The translations under genes and the position numbers were made by a program. The notes beneath the pieces are model-generated. The model saw only the letters and a list, made by a program, of their open reading frames with translations, was not told the origin of the DNA and did no database searches. From assembly GCA_027337125.1 (NCBI GenBank), contig GCA_027337125.1_3057.1: a stretch of 64,000 bases of DNA; one strand, written 5' to 3'. Positions 3,157-59,059 of the stretch are shown here, one piece after another (position 1 is the first letter of the stretch; each line of letters opens with the position of its first letter). Source of the stretch: a phage.

Positions 3157-3822
3157 ATGTTCCATTACATTTATAAAATAACAAATAAAATTAATAATAA
3201 AATCTATATAGGCGCTCATTCTACCGAAAATTTAGATGATGGATATATGGGTTCTGGTAAATTATTAAAAAGAGCCCAAGATAAATATGGTATAGAAAAT
3301 TTTTCTAAAGAAATATTAGAGTTCTTTGACGATAAAACCTCTATGTTTGAGTCAGAAAAGAATATTGTGACTGAAGAGTTTTTAAAGCGCCCTGATGTTT
3401 ATAATTTGAAATTAGGTGGTGAAGGTGGTTGGGACCATTTAAACACTAAAGAATATTTGGATAAAAAGAAAGAAGCTTCCTTAAAAGGAGCTGCCGCTTT
3501 TAAAACCAGATTTGAGAACGACCCAGACCTTAAAGAAAAATATCGTAAAATGGGTTCAGAAAGGTTTAAACAGCTTTGGGATAATCCTAAGTATAGAGAG
3601 AAATTTTTAAATACTAAATCTTTCTTGGGTAAGACCCATACTCCTGAAACTATTAATAAAATGAAAGAATCTCACGCCAGAAATAAACACCAACAAGGTG
3701 AAAAGAATTCCCAATTTGGCATGATGTGGATTCATTCATTAGATGAAAAAGTTTCTAAACGTATTAAGAAAACTGACCCAATTCCAGAAGGATGGTTTAA
3801 AGGTCGAAAAATGAAATTTTAA
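3157..3822 (+). CDS. segB: GIY-YIG homing endonuclease SegB-like, inside tRNA cluster
   Basis: N-terminal GIY-YIG motif (IYKITNKINNKIYIGAH); sits between tRNA subclusters as T4 segB does. Confidence 0.8.
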   Translation: MFHYIYKITNKINNKIYIGAHSTENLDDGYMGSGKLLKRAQDKYGIENFSKEILEFFDDKTSMFESEKNIVTEEFLKRPDVYNLKLGGEGGWDHLNTKEYLDKKKEASLKGAAAFKTRFENDPDLKEKYRKMGSERFKQLWDNPKYREKFLNTKSFLGKTHTPETINKMKESHARNKHQQGEKNSQFGMMWIHSLDEKVSKRIKKTDPIPEGWFKGRKMKF

Positions 3823-3825
3823 TTA

Positions 3826-3902
<77 letters not shown>

Positions 3903-4244
3903 GACAAGAAACCGGGTCGCTACCGGTAAGTCGTCGGACTGATGTTCCCTGAGTAAGGAATTGCGTTAATAATCTTTGTGTTTATTGATGCCCTCTTACA
4001 TCACAGCAGAAACGGCGCACCGAATTATCGATTCGAGGAAATATCTTTGCCGTAAGCCGAGTAGCGTTTTTGACGGAACGTTCGGATATGGTCGAGATGT
4101 GGCCTTTTAAAAATATTGAGTAGCGTCAACTACTTAATAACCGGGTTCGAATCCCGGCGTTTCGTACAAACACTTGCCTTAGCAGGTGGAACCCGACAAG
4201 GTTGCCGCAAGGCTTAGCCCCGACCGAAAGGTTGGGGCTTTTTA
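3903..4244 (+). ncRNA. stable small RNAs downstream of tRNA-Arg (T4 species 1/2, rnaC/rnaD-like); boundaries uncertain
   Basis: No ORF; GC-richer structured segment with tRNA-like T-arm (GGTTCGAATCC) ending in hairpin plus T-run; matches T4 rnaC/rnaD position. Confidence 0.45.
4216..4244 (+). terminator. rho-independent terminator closing the tRNA/stable RNA unit
   Basis: AGCCCCGACC-GAAA-GGTTGGGGCT hairpin followed by TTTTT. Confidence 0.55.
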
Positions 4245-9361: not shown

Positions 9362-9724
9362 ATGAAAGCATATCAAATTCTTGAAGGCACGCACAAAGGT
9401 ACTATTTATTTTGAAGATGGTATTCAAGCACGAATTATCGTTTCTAAAACCTTTAAAGAGGACTCTTTTGTAGACCCAGAAATTTTCTATGGTTTGCATG
9501 CCCGTGAAATTGAAATTGAGCCACAGCCTACAGTTAAAATTGAAGGTGGTCAGCACCTGAACGTTAACGTTCTGCGTCGTGAAACTCTGGAAGATGCAGT
9601 TAAGCATCCGGAAAAATATCCGCAGCTGACCATCCGTGTCTCCGGTTATGCAGTTCGCTTTAACTCTCTGACTCCGGAACAGCAGCGCGACGTTATCGCT
9701 CGTACCTTTACCGAGAGTTTGTAA
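9362..9724 (+). CDS. autonomous glycyl-radical cofactor GrcA/YfiD-like protein
   Basis: C-terminal 60 aa essentially identical to recalled E. coli GrcA / PflB glycyl-radical domain ([10 protein letters not shown]...[29 protein letters not shown]). Confidence 0.8.
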
Positions 9725-10484: not shown

Positions 10485-10533
10485 GTTTACTTTTCCTCTT
10501 GACTGTGGTATAATTTTTCTATCAGTTAAGAGG
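10485..10533 (+). promoter_or_regulatory. early promoter embedded in inverted repeat whose 3' arm covers the regB Shine-Dalgarno
   Basis: GTTTAC-17 bp-TATAAT; arms CCTCTTGACTG / CAGTTAAGAGG (10 pairs plus one G-T). Confidence 0.6.
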
Positions 10534-11010: not shown

Positions 11011-11556
11011 ATGAGAAAAGCACTACTCGCTGGTCTATTGGCCATTTCAATGATGGCACATAGCTCCGAGCATACTTTCAGTAATGTCCAACTCGATAAC
11101 ATGCGTTACGCGTATCAATTCGGGGAACAATTTTCTAAGGATGGAAAATATAAAACACACAAAAATATCCACAAGAGCGGATTAGGTCATATAATGGCTG
11201 CTATTTTATGGCAAGAAAGCTCTGCCGGAGTTAATTTAAAATCTAAACCAAAGCATCACGCTTATGGAATGTTCCAAAATTATTTGCCTACTATGCGAGC
11301 AAGAGTTAAGGAACTTGGTTATAATATGACCGATGCTGAAATAAAAAGAATGTTGAATAAACGATCCAATTCAGCTTCATGGGCGTACATTGAACTTTCT
11401 TATTGGTTAAATATACATAAGGGTGATATAAGAAAAGCAATATCCTCTTATAATTCGGGATGGAATGTTAAAGCAGGTTCTAAATATGCTTCTGAAGTCC
11501 TAGAAAAGGCTAATTACCTTAAAAATAATAAACTTTTGGAAATAGTAAATGACTAA
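11011..11556 (+). CDS. secreted lytic transglycosylase-like protein (vs.1 position)
   Basis: Signal peptide; SLT-like E-S-S...G-M-F-Q motif. Confidence 0.6.
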   Translation: MRKALLAGLLAISMMAHSSEHTFSNVQLDNMRYAYQFGEQFSKDGKYKTHKNIHKSGLGHIMAAILWQESSAGVNLKSKPKHHAYGMFQNYLPTMRARVKELGYNMTDAEIKRMLNKRSNSASWAYIELSYWLNIHKGDIRKAISSYNSGWNVKAGSKYASEVLEKANYLKNNKLLEIVND

Positions 11557-11896
11557 AATTTTGGTTTTATGTATAGGATTAATTTCATTTTCTGCTTATG
11601 CGTCAGCAGATACATCATATACTGAAATTAGAGAGTATGTAAACCGTACTGCCGCGGATTATTGCGGGAAAAATAAAGCATGCCAAGCTGAATTTGCGCA
11701 GAAATTAATATATGCATATAAAGACGGAGAAAGAGATAAATCAAGCAGATACAAAAATGATACTTTATTAAAACGATATGCTAAAAAGTGGAATACCTTA
11801 GAATGTTCAGTTGCGGAGGAGAAAGATAAAGCCGCTTGTCATTCAATGGTTGACCGTTTGGTAGATTCTTATAATCGAGGATTGAGTACTAGATGA
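11549..11896 (+). CDS. small secreted protein at the vs position
   Basis: 115 aa with N-terminal signal-like hydrophobic segment; identity with T4 Vs not established. Confidence 0.45.
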   Translation: MTKILVLCIGLISFSAYASADTSYTEIREYVNRTAADYCGKNKACQAEFAQKLIYAYKDGERDKSSRYKNDTLLKRYAKKWNTLECSVAEEKDKAACHSMVDRLVDSYNRGLSTR

Positions 11897-12372
11897 TTGT
11901 AAAATATATCAAGGGCGATATTGTCGCCCTATTTCTTCAAGGTAATATTATTGCGCATGGGTGCAACTGCTTTCATACTATGGGTTCAGGTGTAGCAGGT
12001 CAATTAGCAAGGGCCTATCCTAAAATTTTAGAAATAGATAAAACCACAACTGAATATGGTTCGCGTGAAAAACTTGGTGATATGTCTATTGTTTTTAAAC
12101 ATAATCCTACAGGATTTGGTATATGCTATAACCTGTATACACAATACGAACCAGGTCCTAATCTTGATTATGGTGCTTTAGTAAACTGCATGATAGAATT
12201 AAATCTACAGGCAGAAACCCTTTTGTTTAAACCAGTAATTTACATTCCACGCATAGGTTGTGGTATTGCTGGCGGTGATTGGGATAAGGTTTCTAAATTA
12301 ATCGACATGTTTACTCCTGATATTGATTTAATAGTGGTGGATTATGAAAGCACATTACCCGCATCCGTTTGA
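11893..12372 (+). CDS. macro-domain protein (ADP-ribose binding/processing)
   Basis: Macro-domain glycine motifs HGCNCFHTMGSGVAGQL and GCGIAGG. Confidence 0.65.
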   Translation: MIVKYIKGDIVALFLQGNIIAHGCNCFHTMGSGVAGQLARAYPKILEIDKTTTEYGSREKLGDMSIVFKHNPTGFGICYNLYTQYEPGPNLDYGALVNCMIELNLQAETLLFKPVIYIPRIGCGIAGGDWDKVSKLIDMFTPDIDLIVVDYESTLPASV

Positions 12373-12556
12373 TCCTAAAAACAAAGCAGAAATTATTCGT
12401 CAATGGGAACGCATTTGCCGTACTAAATGCCCAATTAATAGTCCACATGATGTAGATAAAGACTATATTGGAACATTCGTTGAATATACCTTTATTGATA
12501 AGAAAGGTCGTAAACAGCATGTAGAAGAATATTGCTTAAAGGTTACATGGTTATGA
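12344..12556 (+). CDS. hypothetical protein
   Basis: 70-aa ORF with GGTGG SD, overlaps macro gene end. Confidence 0.45.
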   Translation: MKAHYPHPFDPKNKAEIIRQWERICRTKCPINSPHDVDKDYIGTFVEYTFIDKKGRKQHVEEYCLKVTWL

Positions 12557-12738
12557 GTTTAAGTAAAGAACAGAAAGATAAATTGTTTGAGCTTATCCAT
12601 GAACTTCTAGATGAGCATACAGAAGCAAACACCTTTTATGATGAATACGGCCCGCTATCTCCCGAACAGCAGGAAGAATTTGCTGAACGGTTTGATAAGA
12701 AAGAAAATGAATTAATAGCTTATGTGAATACACTTTAA
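12547..12738 (+). CDS. hypothetical acidic protein
   Basis: ATG (MVMSLSK) after AAAGG; ORF-track start is TTG. Confidence 0.45.
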   Translation: MVMSLSKEQKDKLFELIHELLDEHTEANTFYDEYGPLSPEQQEEFAERFDKKENELIAYVNTL

Positions 12739-12747
12739 GAAGGTGAT

Positions 12748-13329
12748 ATGGCGAGTTTAATTTTTACTTATGCAGCAATGAATGCTGGAAAATCTGCTTC
12801 TCTTTTGACTGCTGCGCATAATTATAAAGAACGTGGAATGAGTGTATTAGTTCTTAAGCCTGCTATTGATATTCGCGATTCTGTCTGTGAAGTTGTTTCT
12901 CGCATTGGAATTAAACAGGAAGCGAATATTATTACAGATGATATGGATATTTTCGAGTTCTATAAATGGGCTGAAGCACAAAAAGATATTCATTGCGTAT
13001 TTGTAGATGAAGCTCAGTTTTTAAAAACTGAACAAGTACACCAATTAAGCCGGATTGTTGATACATATAATGTTCCTGTTATGGCTTATGGATTAAGAAC
13101 TGATTTCGCTGGAAAATTATTTGAAGGTTCTAAAGAACTTTTGGCGATTGCTGATAAACTTATTGAGCTTAAAGCGGTTTGTCACTGTGGTAAAAAAGCT
13201 ATTATGACCGCTCGATTAATGGAAGATGGAACCCCAGTTAAAGAAGGCGATCAAATTTGTATTGGTGATGAAATTTACGTATCTTTATGTAGAAAACATT
13301 GGAACGAATTAACTAAAAAGCTAGATTAG
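12748..13329 (+). CDS. tk: thymidine kinase
   Basis: 193 aa, P-loop AMNAGKS, zinc-ribbon CHCG...C; matches recalled T4 Tk. Confidence 0.9.
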   Translation: MASLIFTYAAMNAGKSASLLTAAHNYKERGMSVLVLKPAIDIRDSVCEVVSRIGIKQEANIITDDMDIFEFYKWAEAQKDIHCVFVDEAQFLKTEQVHQLSRIVDTYNVPVMAYGLRTDFAGKLFEGSKELLAIADKLIELKAVCHCGKKAIMTARLMEDGTPVKEGDQICIGDEIYVSLCRKHWNELTKKLD

Positions 13330-56954: not shown

Positions 56955-57115
56955 ACAGAGATATGACGTTAGAAGAGGCCAAGGCTAAAGCAAATGAAGC
57001 ATTGGATTTGCTTCTTAAAATTGGCAGTAAAATGATGGAAGAAAATGAGAAATATATCCAGGAAAACAAAATTCCTGACGGTCCATTAGTAGGCAAGAGG
57101 AAATCATATGATTGA
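56951..57115 (+). CDS. hypothetical small protein (54 aa)
   Basis: ATG overlapping previous stop; coding-like. Confidence 0.4.
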
Positions 57116-57578
57116 AGTAGCAAAACATTATTCAATAGAATTTATGTCCAAAGAAGGTAAATCAGTAAATACACTTGATAAAAAGTGCTCATTAATTATT
57201 CCTTTAGCAGAAAATCCGGATCTTTTAATTAAAGATATAAAAGAAAGAAAATATCCAGAAAATGTTATTCTAATTATAAAGCATACTGAAGATATTTTGC
57301 AGAATACTGATTCACCATTTTCTTCTTCTGAAGCTTTAACTATTAAAGGCTATAAAAGAGCTCGTGAATATGGTCTTTTTGACCTGTTTGAAGACGATAA
57401 AGTTAAATTAGCGAGTCAACCTTCTAAAAGTAAAACATTCATTATTGAAGATATTAAAGATATAAATGCATTTGTTAAGATGGTCTGGGCTCATTTTGAT
57501 GTTGGACTACGCTGGAGAATGTCCGAAGAAGAAAGAAAGATTATTGAAGCTAATCGTCAATTTGGTTTTTATCGCTAG
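57108..57578 (+). CDS. hypothetical protein
   Basis: 156-aa ORF. Confidence 0.55.
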
Positions 57579-57836: not shown

Positions 57837-58460
57837 ATGATTATTAATCTTGCAGATGTTGAACAGTTATCTATAAAAGCTGAAAGCGTTGATTTTCAAT
57901 ATGATATGTATAAAAAGGTCTGTGAAAAATTTACTGACTTTGAACAGTCAATTCTTTGGCAATGTATGGAAGCCAAAAAGAATGAAGCTCTTCATCGGCA
58001 GTTGAATAAAATCATTAAAAAGCATTTAACTAAATCACCTTATCAGCTATATCGTGGTATATCAAAATCGACAAAAGAACTCATTAAAGATTTACAAGTC
58101 GGAGAAGTGTTTTCAACGAACAGAGTAGATTCATTTACTACTAGTTTGCACACAGCGTGTTCTTTTTCTTATGCTGAATATTTTACTGAAACAATACTTC
58201 GCTTAAAAACTGATAAAGCTTTTAATTACTCTGACCATATCAGCGATATTATACTTTCTTCTCCTAATACTGAGTTTAAGTATACATATGAAGATACTGA
58301 TGGATTAGATTCAGAACGTACTGATAACTTAATGATGATTGTGCGTGAACAAGAATGGATGATTCCAATTGGAAAGTATAAAATAACTTCTATTTCAAAA
58401 GAAAAATTACATGATTCATTTGGAACATTTAAAGTGTATGATATTGAGGTAGTTGAATGA
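57837..58460 (+). CDS. modB: ADP-ribosyltransferase ModB-like
   Basis: 207 aa; ART signature R (YRGIS), S-T-x, and EQEWMIP (Q/E-x-E). Confidence 0.65.
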   Translation: MIINLADVEQLSIKAESVDFQYDMYKKVCEKFTDFEQSILWQCMEAKKNEALHRQLNKIIKKHLTKSPYQLYRGISKSTKELIKDLQVGEVFSTNRVDSFTTSLHTACSFSYAEYFTETILRLKTDKAFNYSDHISDIILSSPNTEFKYTYEDTDGLDSERTDNLMMIVREQEWMIPIGKYKITSISKEKLHDSFGTFKVYDIEVVE

Positions 58461-59059
58461 AATATTCAGCAATGCAATTAAAAGATTTTAAAATCAAATC
58501 AATGGATGCATCGGTGCGTGCTTCTATTCGTGAAGAATTACTTTCTGAAGGATTTAATTTATCTGAAATTGAACTTTTAATTCATTGTATTACTAATAAG
58601 CCAGACGATCATTCTTGGTTAAATGAAATAATCAAATCTCGTTTGGTTCCAAACGATAAACCTCTTTGGAGAGGTGTTCCAGTTGAGACTAAGCAGGTGT
58701 TAAATCAAGGAATTGATATTATTACATTTGATAAAGTAGTATCAGCTTCATATGATAAAAATATAGCTCTGCATTTTGCTTCTGGATTAGAATACAACAC
58801 GCAAGTTATTTTTGAATTCAAAGCTCCTATGGTATTTAATTTTCAGGAGTATGCTATAAAAGCTCTACGCTGTAAAGAATATAGTCCAAGTTTTAAGTTT
58901 CCGGATAGCCATCGCTATCGTAATATGGAATTAGTTTCAGATGAACAAGAAGTAATGATACCAGCTGGAAGTGTATTTAGAATTGCGGATAGATACGAGT
59001 ATAAAAAGTATTCAACATACACTATCTATACTCTTGACTTTGAAGGATTTAATCTATAA
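58457..59059 (+). CDS. modA: ADP-ribosyltransferase ModA-like
   Basis: 200 aa; LWRGV, SASYD and EQEVMIP motifs; paralogue of preceding gene. Confidence 0.65.
   Translation: MKYSAMQLKDFKIKSMDASVRASIREELLSEGFNLSEIELLIHCITNKPDDHSWLNEIIKSRLVPNDKPLWRGVPVETKQVLNQGIDIITFDKVVSASYDKNIALHFASGLEYNTQVIFEFKAPMVFNFQEYAIKALRCKEYSPSFKFPDSHRYRNMELVSDEQEVMIPAGSVFRIADRYEYKKYSTYTIYTLDFEGFNL

Follow-up and report, generated by a model that had tools for sequence, protein, structure and literature searches.

Introduction

A screen of transposon mutants on a DarTG2-expressing host identified tk.4 as the sole T4 gene that was depleted, and a clean tk.4 knockout made T4 sensitive to DarTG2 (bioRxiv 10.1101/2025.11.20.689424). 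The gene was renamed adfM (anti-DarT factor Macrodomain), and the support in T4 is genetic and comes from this 2025 preprint. T4 lacking both adfA and adfN remains resistant to DarTG2 (PMC11825919), and a further anti-DarTG2 factor was therefore already expected. Gp104 of the chimallivirus PhiKZ, also called AdfM, is a stand-alone phage macrodomain that counters DarTG2, reverses thymidine ADP-ribosylation in biochemical assays and is imported into the phage nucleus; its N23A mutant showed reduced de-ADP-ribosylation of DNA (PMC13309987). The name AdfM has thus been given independently to two phage proteins, T4 Tk.4 and PhiKZ gp104, that are not orthologous.

The ALC1/TARG1-like class of macrodomains comprises TARG1, DarG, SCO6735/BT1257 and Poa1p, and reversal of thymidine ADP-ribosylation has been demonstrated biochemically for DarG, TARG1 and SCO6735 (PMC9411070). 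SCO6735 from Streptomyces coelicolor and BT1257 from Bacteroides thetaiotaomicron, which are 54% identical, form a Gln-type subclass. In SCO6735 the equivalent of the catalytic lysine is Gln85, mutation of which (Q85A) results in the loss of all activity, and within the subclass hydrolysis of thymidine-ADP-ribose on single-stranded DNA has been shown for SCO6735 only (PMC9411070). Both proteins are basic, cellular and associated with a RecA-independent, DNA-damage-inducible (RecA-NDp-type) promoter, and both carry a mobile loop, about 5-6 residues longer and bearing lysines, that has been proposed to clamp DNA.

RES-domain (aRES) defence proteins phosphorolyse NAD+ to ADPR-1''-P. A macrodomain protein of Vibrio phage Gary, Adpp, acts on this soluble product as part of the NARP1-AP pathway: the purified protein turns ADPR-1P into ADPR, and activity against aRES is lost with the H24A mutation (bioRxiv 10.64898/2026.01.28.702374). 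Here we describe a macrodomain gene in a 64-kb stretch of phage DNA (the whole stretch analysed, referred to as the window) and compare it with these systems.

Results

The macrodomain gene occupies the tk.4 slot of a T4-like genome

The window is from a Tequatrovirus, with the genes regB, vs.1, vs, tk.4, tk.3 and tk in the same order as in T4. The ORF at 11893..12372 (plus strand, stop codon included) begins with ATG and encodes a stand-alone macrodomain protein of 159 residues. It lies in the slot between vs and tk.3 that T4 tk.4 occupies, which is the position that characterises the AdfM orthologous group. The preliminary description had placed the gene next to tk (12748..13329); it is indeed near tk, but two small ORFs, tk.3 (DUF7202; 12344..12556) and a tk.2-like ORF (12532..12738), lie between them. 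No darT adjoins the gene, the immediate neighbours being vs and tk.3.

The upstream gene, vs, encodes the valyl-tRNA synthetase modifier and ends at 11896. The translation start region of tk.4, as read from the sequence (11877..11896, plus strand), contains a Shine-Dalgarno element, GAGGA, at 11877-11881, 11 nt 5' of the ATG at 11893-11895. The start codon overlaps the stop codon of vs in an ATGA at 11893-11896, which suggests that translation of tk.4 may be coupled to that of vs. Within codons 7-13 of tk.4, a terminator scan detected an RNA hairpin, AGGGCGATATTGTCGCCCT, followed by ATTTCTT (11912..11930, plus strand), with a folding energy of about -13 kcal/mol. The same hairpin is found in T4, Shfl2 and SP1, and it carries a 'terminator' annotation in MT682709.

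The window carries a divergent allele of tk.4

The encoded protein was 58% identical to T4 Tk.4 (NP_049723) over 155 residues (E 1.3e-69), and this homology extends along the full length. The two proteins share genomic slot, fold family and length class (159 residues in the window, 155 in T4), as well as invariant residues that include H22, N25 and Q84. The two also agree in every one of the first 14 residues and in the 5' hairpin. They differ in glycine-rich loop 2, which in the window protein reads GCGIAGGDW, the family consensus, and in T4 Tk.4 reads GAGIGKGNW, and at the C-terminus, which is 4 residues longer in the window protein and runs 29 nt into tk.3.

We examined the extent of this divergence by calculating identity to T4 per block of 100 columns in a MAFFT alignment. 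Nucleotide identity was 49-67% across 11982..12368 (plus strand), as compared to 88-100% just upstream and 89-97% just downstream, so that the segment has the appearance of an allelic replacement block. The hairpin at 11912..11930 sits at the left edge of this block. Flanking proteins were closely similar to those of T4 (Vs.1, 99.4%; Vs, 99.1%; Tk.3, 94.3%; Tk, 98.4%). The new finding here is the divergent allele itself, with 58% identity to T4 Tk.4 between flanks of 94-99% identity.

The protein is a macrodomain of the ALC1/TARG1-like class

The Pfam Macro family (PF01661) matched residues 22-136 with 34.4 bits (E=2.3e-8; model positions 2-117 of 118), above the gathering cut-off of 22 bits. 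Together with two glycine loops that contain residues invariant in 53 homologues, this bears out the macro-domain glycine motifs that had been noticed in the ORF. An AlphaFold2 model, which rests on an alignment of homologues from which the T4 Tk.4 row was left out, had a mean pLDDT of 95 and a pTM of 0.89. It showed the three-layer alpha/beta/alpha arrangement of macrodomains, in which the ADP-ribose cleft is lined by the two glycine-rich loops, and its top structural matches were macrodomains throughout. Both structure and profile comparisons placed the protein nearer to the ALC1/TARG1-like class than to the MacroD, viral, PARG or macroH2A types. Domain identity and class, together with synteny and the conservation of residues, are shown by the present analysis.

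Database labels for the family are varied. Both the window protein and T4 Tk.4 matched phrog_335, labelled 'phosphatase', several homologues carry the JGI label 'O-acetyl-ADP-ribose deacetylase (regulator of RNase III)', and the NCBIfam OAADPr deacetylase model matched the window protein weakly (E 0.005). The DarG macrodomain models of PADLOC (positions 3-144 of 329) and NCBIfam (NF048014, positions 2-142 of 338) were also matched, the latter with 28 bits, below the cut-off of 250 bits. The protein is acidic, with a pI of about 5.1 and 12 K+R versus 17 D+E.

A glutamine takes the place of the catalytic lysine

Three segments of the plus strand encode the putative active site. Loop 1 of the ADP-ribose pocket (codons 22-35, 11956..11997) reads H22-G-C-N-C-F-H-T-M-G-S-G-V-A35; the N-L-Y-T-Q segment (codons 80-84, 12130..12144) ends in Q84 (caa, 12142-12144); and the glycine-rich loop 2, predicted to bind the diphosphate (codons 119-130, 12247..12282), reads P119-R-I-G-C-G-I-A-G-G-D-W130. 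Alignment of 53 diverse homologues revealed invariant columns in all three segments: H22, G23, N25, C26, G33 and A35 in loop 1, N80, Y82 and Q84 (53/53) in the second, and P119, G122, G124 and W130 in loop 2.

Q84 falls at the site of the catalytic lysine in DarG (K80) and TARG1 (K84); in SCO6735 the same site has Gln85, which is essential. This register was obtained with hhalign, which aligned the Tk.4 family with a DarG set (gathered via a PhiKZ gp104 query) at a probability of 98.7%, with NLYTQ over NFPTK. In profile alignments to PDB entries, LITK of TARG1 and NMIGQ of BT1257 shared columns with NLYTQ; a phmmer search with a truncated query against DarG aligned the C-terminal loop alone. 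The DarG-type lysine was thus absent from the window protein in the hhalign and profile alignments, its place being taken by Gln84. A126 lies at the position of the catalytic D125 of TARG1, in the alignment to TARG1 PRIGCGLDRLQW. H22 aligned with H24 of Gary Adpp and with the Poa1p histidine that is mutated in PDB 6LFS, and N25 aligned with N23 of PhiKZ AdfM.

The preliminary description had regarded a lack of catalytic residues as evidence against hydrolysis. In part this is what we observed, with Gln84 at the DarG/TARG1 lysine and Ala126 at the TARG1 aspartate; however, a glutamine at this site supports thymidine-ADP-ribose hydrolysis by SCO6735. We considered and dropped the possibility that the missing lysine reflects loss of catalytic activity, because SCO6735 uses, and requires, a glutamine there (PMC9411070).

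Relationship to characterised macrodomains

The window protein shares with SCO6735 and BT1257 the glutamine in place of the catalytic lysine. It differs from them in being acidic and phage-encoded, and in the absence of the longer, lysine-bearing mobile loop: relative to the Tk.4 profile, BT1257 has a 6-residue insertion right after the glutamine, whereas the loop of Tk.4 is of TARG1/DarG length. Identity to the DarG proteins of DarTG2 systems (Mtb Rv0060 and T. aquaticus DarG) was about 20%; the FPTK motif with its catalytic lysine (Taq K80) is replaced by YTQ, and the C-terminal DarT-binding domain of DarG is absent. PhiKZ gp104 is of DarG type (E 9e-25 to Mtb DarG) and has kept the FPTK lysine. 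It belongs to another lineage than Tk.4, a Gln-type protein with BT1257 and Poa1p as nearer relatives, although N25 corresponds to N23 of gp104.

The similarity to Gary Adpp was considerably higher (39% identity, E 6e-27). Adpp and Poa1p have in common with Tk.4 the motifs H-x-C-N-C-F, K-L-G, N-x-Y-x-Q and GCGxAGGDW, and the essential histidine of Adpp (H24) and of yeast Poa1p (H23) corresponds to H22, AHGCNCF of the window protein lying over AHQCNCF of Adpp. Adpp is set between Adps and Namat, whereas tk.4 in the window is without NARP1 partners. As judged from these alignments, the Tk.4-type AdfM is a Gln-type macrodomain, akin to SCO6735/BT1257 and Adpp, and not a copy of DarG.

Two ADP-ribosyltransferase genes in the window

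Two ADP-ribosyltransferases had been proposed at 57837-59059, and the assignment holds. The ORFs at 57837..58460 (207 residues) and 58457..59059 (200 residues) matched phrog_832, 'RNA polymerase ADP-ribosylase' (E 7e-42 and 4e-33, respectively), and both were 98% identical in DNA sequence to genes annotated as modB and modA in T4-like phages. A Pfam search of the two ORFs gave no match.

Discussion

The gene in the window is, in our estimation with a probability of about 0.68, an orthologue of T4 tk.4 (adfM) whose product serves as an 'orphan antitoxin', a stand-alone macrodomain that guards the phage against DarTG2-type defence. That a macro domain here could counter DNA ADP-ribosylation by DarT had been suggested in the preliminary description; for the T4 orthologue this is already published, the adfM knockout being sensitive to DarTG2, and the find in the window is a real instance of a known system. 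For the 58%-identical allele, the anti-DarTG2 function would follow by orthology.

During infection, the host toxin DarT2 would ADP-ribosylate thymidines in the single-stranded DNA of the phage and thereby block its replication. Tk.4, presumably produced early from the transcription unit regB-vs.1-vs-tk.4, would hold the ADP-ribose moiety in the cleft between loop 1 (H22-A35) and loop 2 (P119-W130) and cut the N-glycosidic bond between ribose and thymine, so that ADP-ribose is freed and the base restored. Gln84 may act as does the glutamine of SCO6735, which has been proposed to position the substrate and a water molecule. We infer enzymatic removal of ADP-ribose from DNA and a Gln-type mechanism; the chemistry of Tk.4 is probably not lysine-dependent as in DarG and TARG1, given that Gln84 is invariant there throughout the family and that SCO6735 likewise has a glutamine.

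Several features weigh against this explanation. The window allele is only 58% identical to the T4 protein that was tested, and the alignments place neither the lysine of DarG/TARG1, nor the aspartate of TARG1, nor the longer mobile loop of the SCO6735/BT1257 type in Tk.4. The protein is acidic, whereas SCO6735, TARG1 and Taq DarG are electropositive, and its closest experimentally characterised phage relative by sequence is Gary Adpp, an ADPR-1''-phosphate phosphatase and no DNA hydrolase.

The kinship with Adpp means that a second or an alternative substrate is possible for Tk.4. We tentatively suggest, as a minority view, that the Tk.4/Adpp family is a dual-purpose 'ADP-ribose 1''-position eraser' and that the sharply bounded, 58%-identical allele cassettes of tk.4 that circulate among T4-like phages are substrate- or toxin-specific variants kept by an arms race. 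If so, a single Gln/His/Asn site would both strip ADP-ribose from thymidine, countering DarT2, and dephosphorylate ADPR-1''-P, countering aRES, and window-type and T4-type alleles would differ in what each neutralises; loop 2 of the window allele (GCGIAGGDW) resembles that of Adpp and SCO6735, unlike the GAGIGKGNW of the T4 type. A neighbour-joining tree did not cleanly split NARP1-linked macrodomains from Tk.4-type proteins, so that the substrate cannot be told from sequence by itself. Neither pI nor net charge separated DNA-acting from metabolite-acting macrodomains, since both groups showed a wide spread.

We consider it rather unlikely that Tk.4 is an Adpp-like ADPR-1''-P phosphatase directed against RES-domain aRES defence, whether as its main or as an added function. 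The 39% identity to Gary Adpp and the match of Adpp H24 to the invariant H22 are consistent with this role, as are the RefSeq label of T4 Tk.4 ('phosphatase; contains A1pp phosphatase motif') and the macro proteins of NARP1 operons, which have the H-x-x-N-C-F motif as well as N-x-Y-[TG]-Q and branch in among Tk.4-type proteins in the distance tree. However, Adpp requires the three-gene operon Adps-Adpp-Namat, any one deletion of which ends counter-defence (bioRxiv 10.64898/2026.01.28.702374), and is defined by a location no more than two genes from Adps and Namat, where the window has vs and tk.3. No homologue of Adps, Namat, Nampt or Nmnat was detected by tblastn in the 64-kb window (best E 0.2), and among the matches sampled, the genomes of Escherichia phages with an Adps homologue measured about 86 kb and 146 kb, as opposed to the ~168 kb of T4-like phages. 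Production of ADPR without NARP1 would not regenerate NAD+, and the only known phenotype of the T4 orthologue is DarTG2-specific (bioRxiv 10.1101/2025.11.20.689424). We rejected NAD+ reconstitution by NARP1-AP as the primary role, given that partner genes are lacking from the window and the neighbours are unrelated. A homologue in a Vibrio phage (MG592554) is flanked by terminase and rIIB-like genes.

Tk.4 could instead act without catalysis, by binding DarT2 or its NAD+/ADPr site ('interaction-inhibition') and not by hydrolysing the adduct, which we regard as improbable. Catalytically dead SCO6735 (Q85A), DarG (K80A) and TARG1 (K84A) still inhibit DarT in vitro, SCO6735 the most (PMC9411070), the phage anti-DarT factors AdfA and AdfB work via toxin binding, and the acidic surface of Tk.4 (pI 5.1) fits mimicry of single-stranded DNA better than binding to it. 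Nevertheless, H22, N25, Q84 and both glycine loops are invariant among homologues whose phages infect widely differing hosts, which fits conserved small-molecule or adduct chemistry and not binding to one fast-evolving toxin; in addition, Tk.4 is without the C-terminal DarT-binding domain of DarG, its matches ending at position 144 of 329 (PADLOC) and 142 of 338 (NCBIfam).

It is more doubtful still that Tk.4 is a generic scavenger of ADPr metabolites, such as a YmdB-like O-acetyl-ADP-ribose deacetylase or a degrader of some other ADPr-derived immune signal. Macrodomains are versatile toward soluble ADPr derivatives, and both the JGI names and the weak NCBIfam match point in this direction, but the deacetylase names are automatic transfers of Pfam/COG labels, and no phenotype links Tk.4 to OAADPr-type substrates. 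T-even phages are reported to be still susceptible to CmdTAC, a defence that ADP-ribosylates mRNA (PMC11618068); Tk.4 therefore does not erase every ADPr mark on nucleic acids.

The proposal that the macrodomain balances the phage's own Mod enzymes, erasing or tuning modification of host proteins by Alt, ModA or ModB (or RNAylation by ModB), found no support and is very improbable, despite the presence of modB and modA in the same window. The T4 enzymes Alt, ModA and ModB form arginine-linked ADP-ribose, a bond that is cleaved by ARH/DraG-type enzymes; to our knowledge, ALC1/TARG1-like macrodomains cleave ester-linked (Glu/Asp) or thymine-linked ADPr and not Arg-ADPr. The two loci are about 45 kb apart, and homologues of Tk.4 occur in >2,700 phage records, including phages of Pseudomonas, Vibrio and Bacillus, whereas the 502 DNA matches to modA/modB were all T4-type. 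TARG1 and SCO6735 of this class do also de-ADP-ribosylate proteins (PMC9411070), but in the T4 screen tk.4 counts were reduced specifically when DarTG2 was present (bioRxiv 10.1101/2025.11.20.689424).

T-even phages stack anti-DarT factors, namely AdfA, AdfN and AdfM/Tk.4; AdfN is a NADAR enzyme directed against the guanine-modifying DarT1, and AdfM/Tk.4 is a macrodomain directed against the thymine-modifying DarT2. Database entries that describe tk.4 as a 'phosphatase' or 'hypothetical protein' would be better named 'macrodomain anti-DarT2 factor AdfM (Tk.4)', and the natural allele cassettes of tk.4 may provide ready material for the study of specificity toward different DarT2 toxins.

The tk.4 orthologue and its neighbourhood

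The ORF at 11893..12372 (+) has an ATG start and 159 codons. A Shine-Dalgarno sequence (GAGGA) could be read 11 nt 5' of the ATG, and this ATG overlaps, as ATGA, with the stop of the gene before it. The encoded protein matched the Pfam Macro family (PF01661) with 34.4 bits (E 2.3e-8; gathering cut-off 22) over nearly the whole model. Loop 1 was found as M30-G-S-G-V-A35, preceded by H22-G-C-N-C, and loop 2 as I121-G-C-G-I-A-G-G-D-W130, confirming the macro-domain glycine motifs reported in the preliminary description. Across 53 diverse homologues, residues H22, G23, N25, C26, G33, A35, D49, N80, Y82, Q84, P119, G122, G124 and W130 were invariant, and the AlphaFold2 model built from this alignment was very confident (pLDDT 95, pTM 0.89).

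The surrounding 2.4 kb matched 750 phage records at up to 97.3% identity, mostly Tequatrovirus of Escherichia and Shigella; the window is a T4-like phage. As described earlier, the ORF lies near tk (thymidine kinase), which begins 376 bp downstream with two small ORFs between. T4 and Shfl2 have the same gene order (GrcA-like, vs.5-vs.3, regB, vs.1, vs, tk.4, tk.3, tk.2, tk, rI.1, rI), so the ORF is the orthologue of T4 tk.4, labelled in RefSeq as 'phosphatase; contains A1pp phosphatase motif'.

Of the sigma-70-like promoter matches in the region, the best is at 10486-10514 (+), just 5' of regB (10542). It consists of TTTACT, a 17-nt spacer, an extended -10 TG and TATAAT, and is a plausible early promoter for a regB-vs.1-vs-tk.4 unit; the total of promoter-like matches in the region was no higher than in shuffled sequence. 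Upstream, a 120-aa ORF at 9362-9724 (+) ends with a glycyl-radical motif (RVSGYAV). The Shfl2 annotation calls it 'autonomous glycyl radical cofactor GrcA'; in T4-like phages it represents a spare glycyl-radical domain. Vs.1 (11011-11556, +), annotated in T4 only as 'hypothetical protein', has a signal-peptide-like N-terminus and matches SLT lytic transglycosylase (PF01464) weakly, though over the threshold (23.4 bits, cut-off 21.3).

Macrodomain class and relation to DarTG2

Structural match scores dropped to at most 13.7 for the coronavirus, alphavirus, PARP and MacroD macrodomains, and Foldseek returned the same set of matches. A profile search with the Tk.4 family found BT1257 (3e-19, the best PDB match), TARG1 (6e-17), SCO6735 (4e-15), Poa1p (4e-14) and DarG (6e-12). 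DarG models were also matched by the window protein (PADLOC, 3.6e-7; NCBIfam, 1.1e-6), though only in the N-terminal macro part and far under the equivalog cut-off. By these matches, the window protein is a stand-alone macrodomain of the ALC1/TARG1-like type. It belongs to a well-known domain class that occurs in about 41% of myoviruses (PMC9503650).

In November 2025, a preprint on HIDEN-SEQ described a T4 transposon library grown on a DarTG2-expressing host; a clean knockout of tk.4, which received the name adfM (for anti-DarT factor Macrodomain), made T4 sensitive to DarTG2 (bioRxiv 10.1101/2025.11.20.689424). This fills an earlier gap, since T4 lacking both adfA and adfN was still resistant to DarTG2 (PMC11825919). 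The central proposal of the preliminary description, that the macro domain could reverse ADP-ribosylation by DarT, is therefore supported, and was already published for the orthologue. The name AdfM was coined independently for PhiKZ gp104, a chimallivirus macrodomain that strips DarT2-installed ADP-ribose from DNA in vitro, an activity lowered by N23A (PMC13309987). The two proteins are not orthologues: T4 Tk.4 is Gln-type and BT1257/Poa1p-like, whereas gp104 is Lys-type and genuinely DarG-like (E 9e-25 to Mtb DarG), retaining F-P-T-K.

Proposed chemistry of the active site

DarG sequences were taken from a PDB search with gp104 as query and used for profile-profile alignment. The [F/L]-[P/I]-T-K motif of DarG and TARG1, which holds the catalytic lysine (Taq DarG K80, TARG1 K84), aligned with N-L-Y-T-Q of the phage family (probability 98.7%), placing the invariant Gln84 where those enzymes have Lys; Ala126 stands at the position of the TARG1 partner Asp125. 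The preliminary description had counted a lack of catalytic residues against hydrolysis. At face value, the absence of the Lys and Asp would speak against it, but SCO6735 of Streptomyces coelicolor carries exactly the Lys-to-Gln replacement (Gln85) and is faster than either DarG or TARG1 at taking thymidine-linked ADP-ribose off DNA; Q85A inactivates it completely, and a water-mediated mechanism with the substrate positioned by Gln was proposed (PMC9411070). BT1257, 54% identical to SCO6735, shows N-x-x-G-Q in register with the phage-family motif. From this parallel we infer that the window protein would use Gln-type chemistry like that of SCO6735 to hydrolyse the bond between ribose and thymine, in which N25 (equivalent to PhiKZ N23) and H22 may contribute to binding the distal ribose. 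The analogy is weakened by the 5-6-residue-longer, lysine-bearing 'mobile loop' of SCO6735, which is missing from the phage protein, and by the acidic character of the latter (pI about 5.1).

Alternative activities

That the protein is a dual-substrate enzyme is doubtful. An Adpp-like phosphatase is improbable, yet deserves consideration. Adpp is a Poa1p-like macro protein inserted in phage NARP1 operons; it dephosphorylates ADPR-1''-phosphate, which the aRES defence makes from NAD+ by phosphorolysis, and so lets NARP1 rebuild NAD+. Purified Adpp of Vibrio phage Gary carries out the dephosphorylation, and H24A abolishes counter-defence (bioRxiv 10.64898/2026.01.28.702374, January 2026). With 39% identity (E 6e-27), Gary Adpp is closer to the window protein than any DarG, and all family-invariant motifs are common to both, among them the Gln and the His (H22 in the window protein). 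A distance tree interleaved the macros linked to NARP1 with Tk.4-type proteins. However, the anti-aRES function of Adpp needs Adps and Namat (bioRxiv 10.64898/2026.01.28.702374), and tblastn found no homologue of Adps, Namat, Nampt or Nmnat in the 64-kb window, where the neighbours of tk.4 are vs and tk.3. Among the rows sampled, the genomes that carried Escherichia-phage Adps homologues were about 86 kb and 146 kb long and not T4-like. The phosphatase reading is therefore a minor rival to reversal of DarT modification.

The ORFs at 57837-58460 (+, 207 aa) and 58457-59059 (+, 200 aa) are, as first described, ADP-ribosyltransferases: both matched PHROG 832 ('RNA polymerase ADP-ribosylase'), and their DNA shares 98% identity with genes annotated as modB and modA, respectively. 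A Pfam search gave no match at E<=0.1, so that they were recognisable only through PHROG 832 and the annotation of near-identical phages. Just upstream of modB, at 57108-57578, lies a gene for an MRH-like protein (PF24070). The suggestion that the macro domain balances these Mod enzymes was not supported, and there is little support for an eraser of the phage's own Alt/Mod marks, for non-catalytic DarT2 inhibition, or for generic scavenging of OAADPr or a signal.

Allelic variation of tk.4

Window Tk.4 is only 58% identical to T4 Tk.4, against 99.4% for Vs.1, 99.1% for Vs, 94.3% for Tk.3 and 98.4% for Tk. Nucleotide identity to T4 was 93-100% up to about 11,880, 88% in 11,882-11,981 and 49-67% over 11,982-12,368, returning to 89-97% in tk.3; the divergent stretch is a sharply bounded allelic cassette. 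In loop 2 the window allele keeps the family consensus GCGIAGGDW, from which T4 deviates (GAGIGKGNW). A terminator-like hairpin, AGGGCGATATTGTCGCCCT followed by ATTTCTT, lies at 11912-11930 (+) in tk.4 codons 7-13, 20 nt past the start codon (RNA fold about -13 kcal/mol). It is kept in T4, Shfl2 and SP1 and is annotated as 'terminator' in MT682709. Because it stands where the divergent block has its left boundary, attenuation of read-through from vs is a possible role; alternatively, it could be the trace of a recombination joint.

Just downstream, a second swapped segment (12532-12790) was 46-60% identical to T4 in nucleotides. Its single 68-aa ORF (12532..12738) has 54% identity with T4 Tk.2 and 30% with Tk.1, and tk.1 itself is missing; the closest relatives, with flanks 97% identical, have about 367 bp extra here, in which two additional small ORFs lie.

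Each of the two alleles is common among sequenced phages: 319 records, JS98 and Shfl2 among them, have the window type (at least 90% identical), and 224, including T2, have the T4 type by the same measure. Homologues of Tk.4 occurred in over 2,700 phage records, whose hosts belong to many genera. In the schitovirus Vibrio phage 1.188.A (MG592554), a homologue 35% identical lies at 3501-3974, with a terminase module on one side and a histidine-kinase-like ATPase/rIIB pair on the other, linked to neither NARP1 nor tk. The family moves among very different genomic contexts. The gene already described as T4 tk.4/adfM is thus present in the window as a common alternative allele, and the points remaining of interest are its Gln-type chemistry, the overlap with Adpp activity and the specificity of the alleles.
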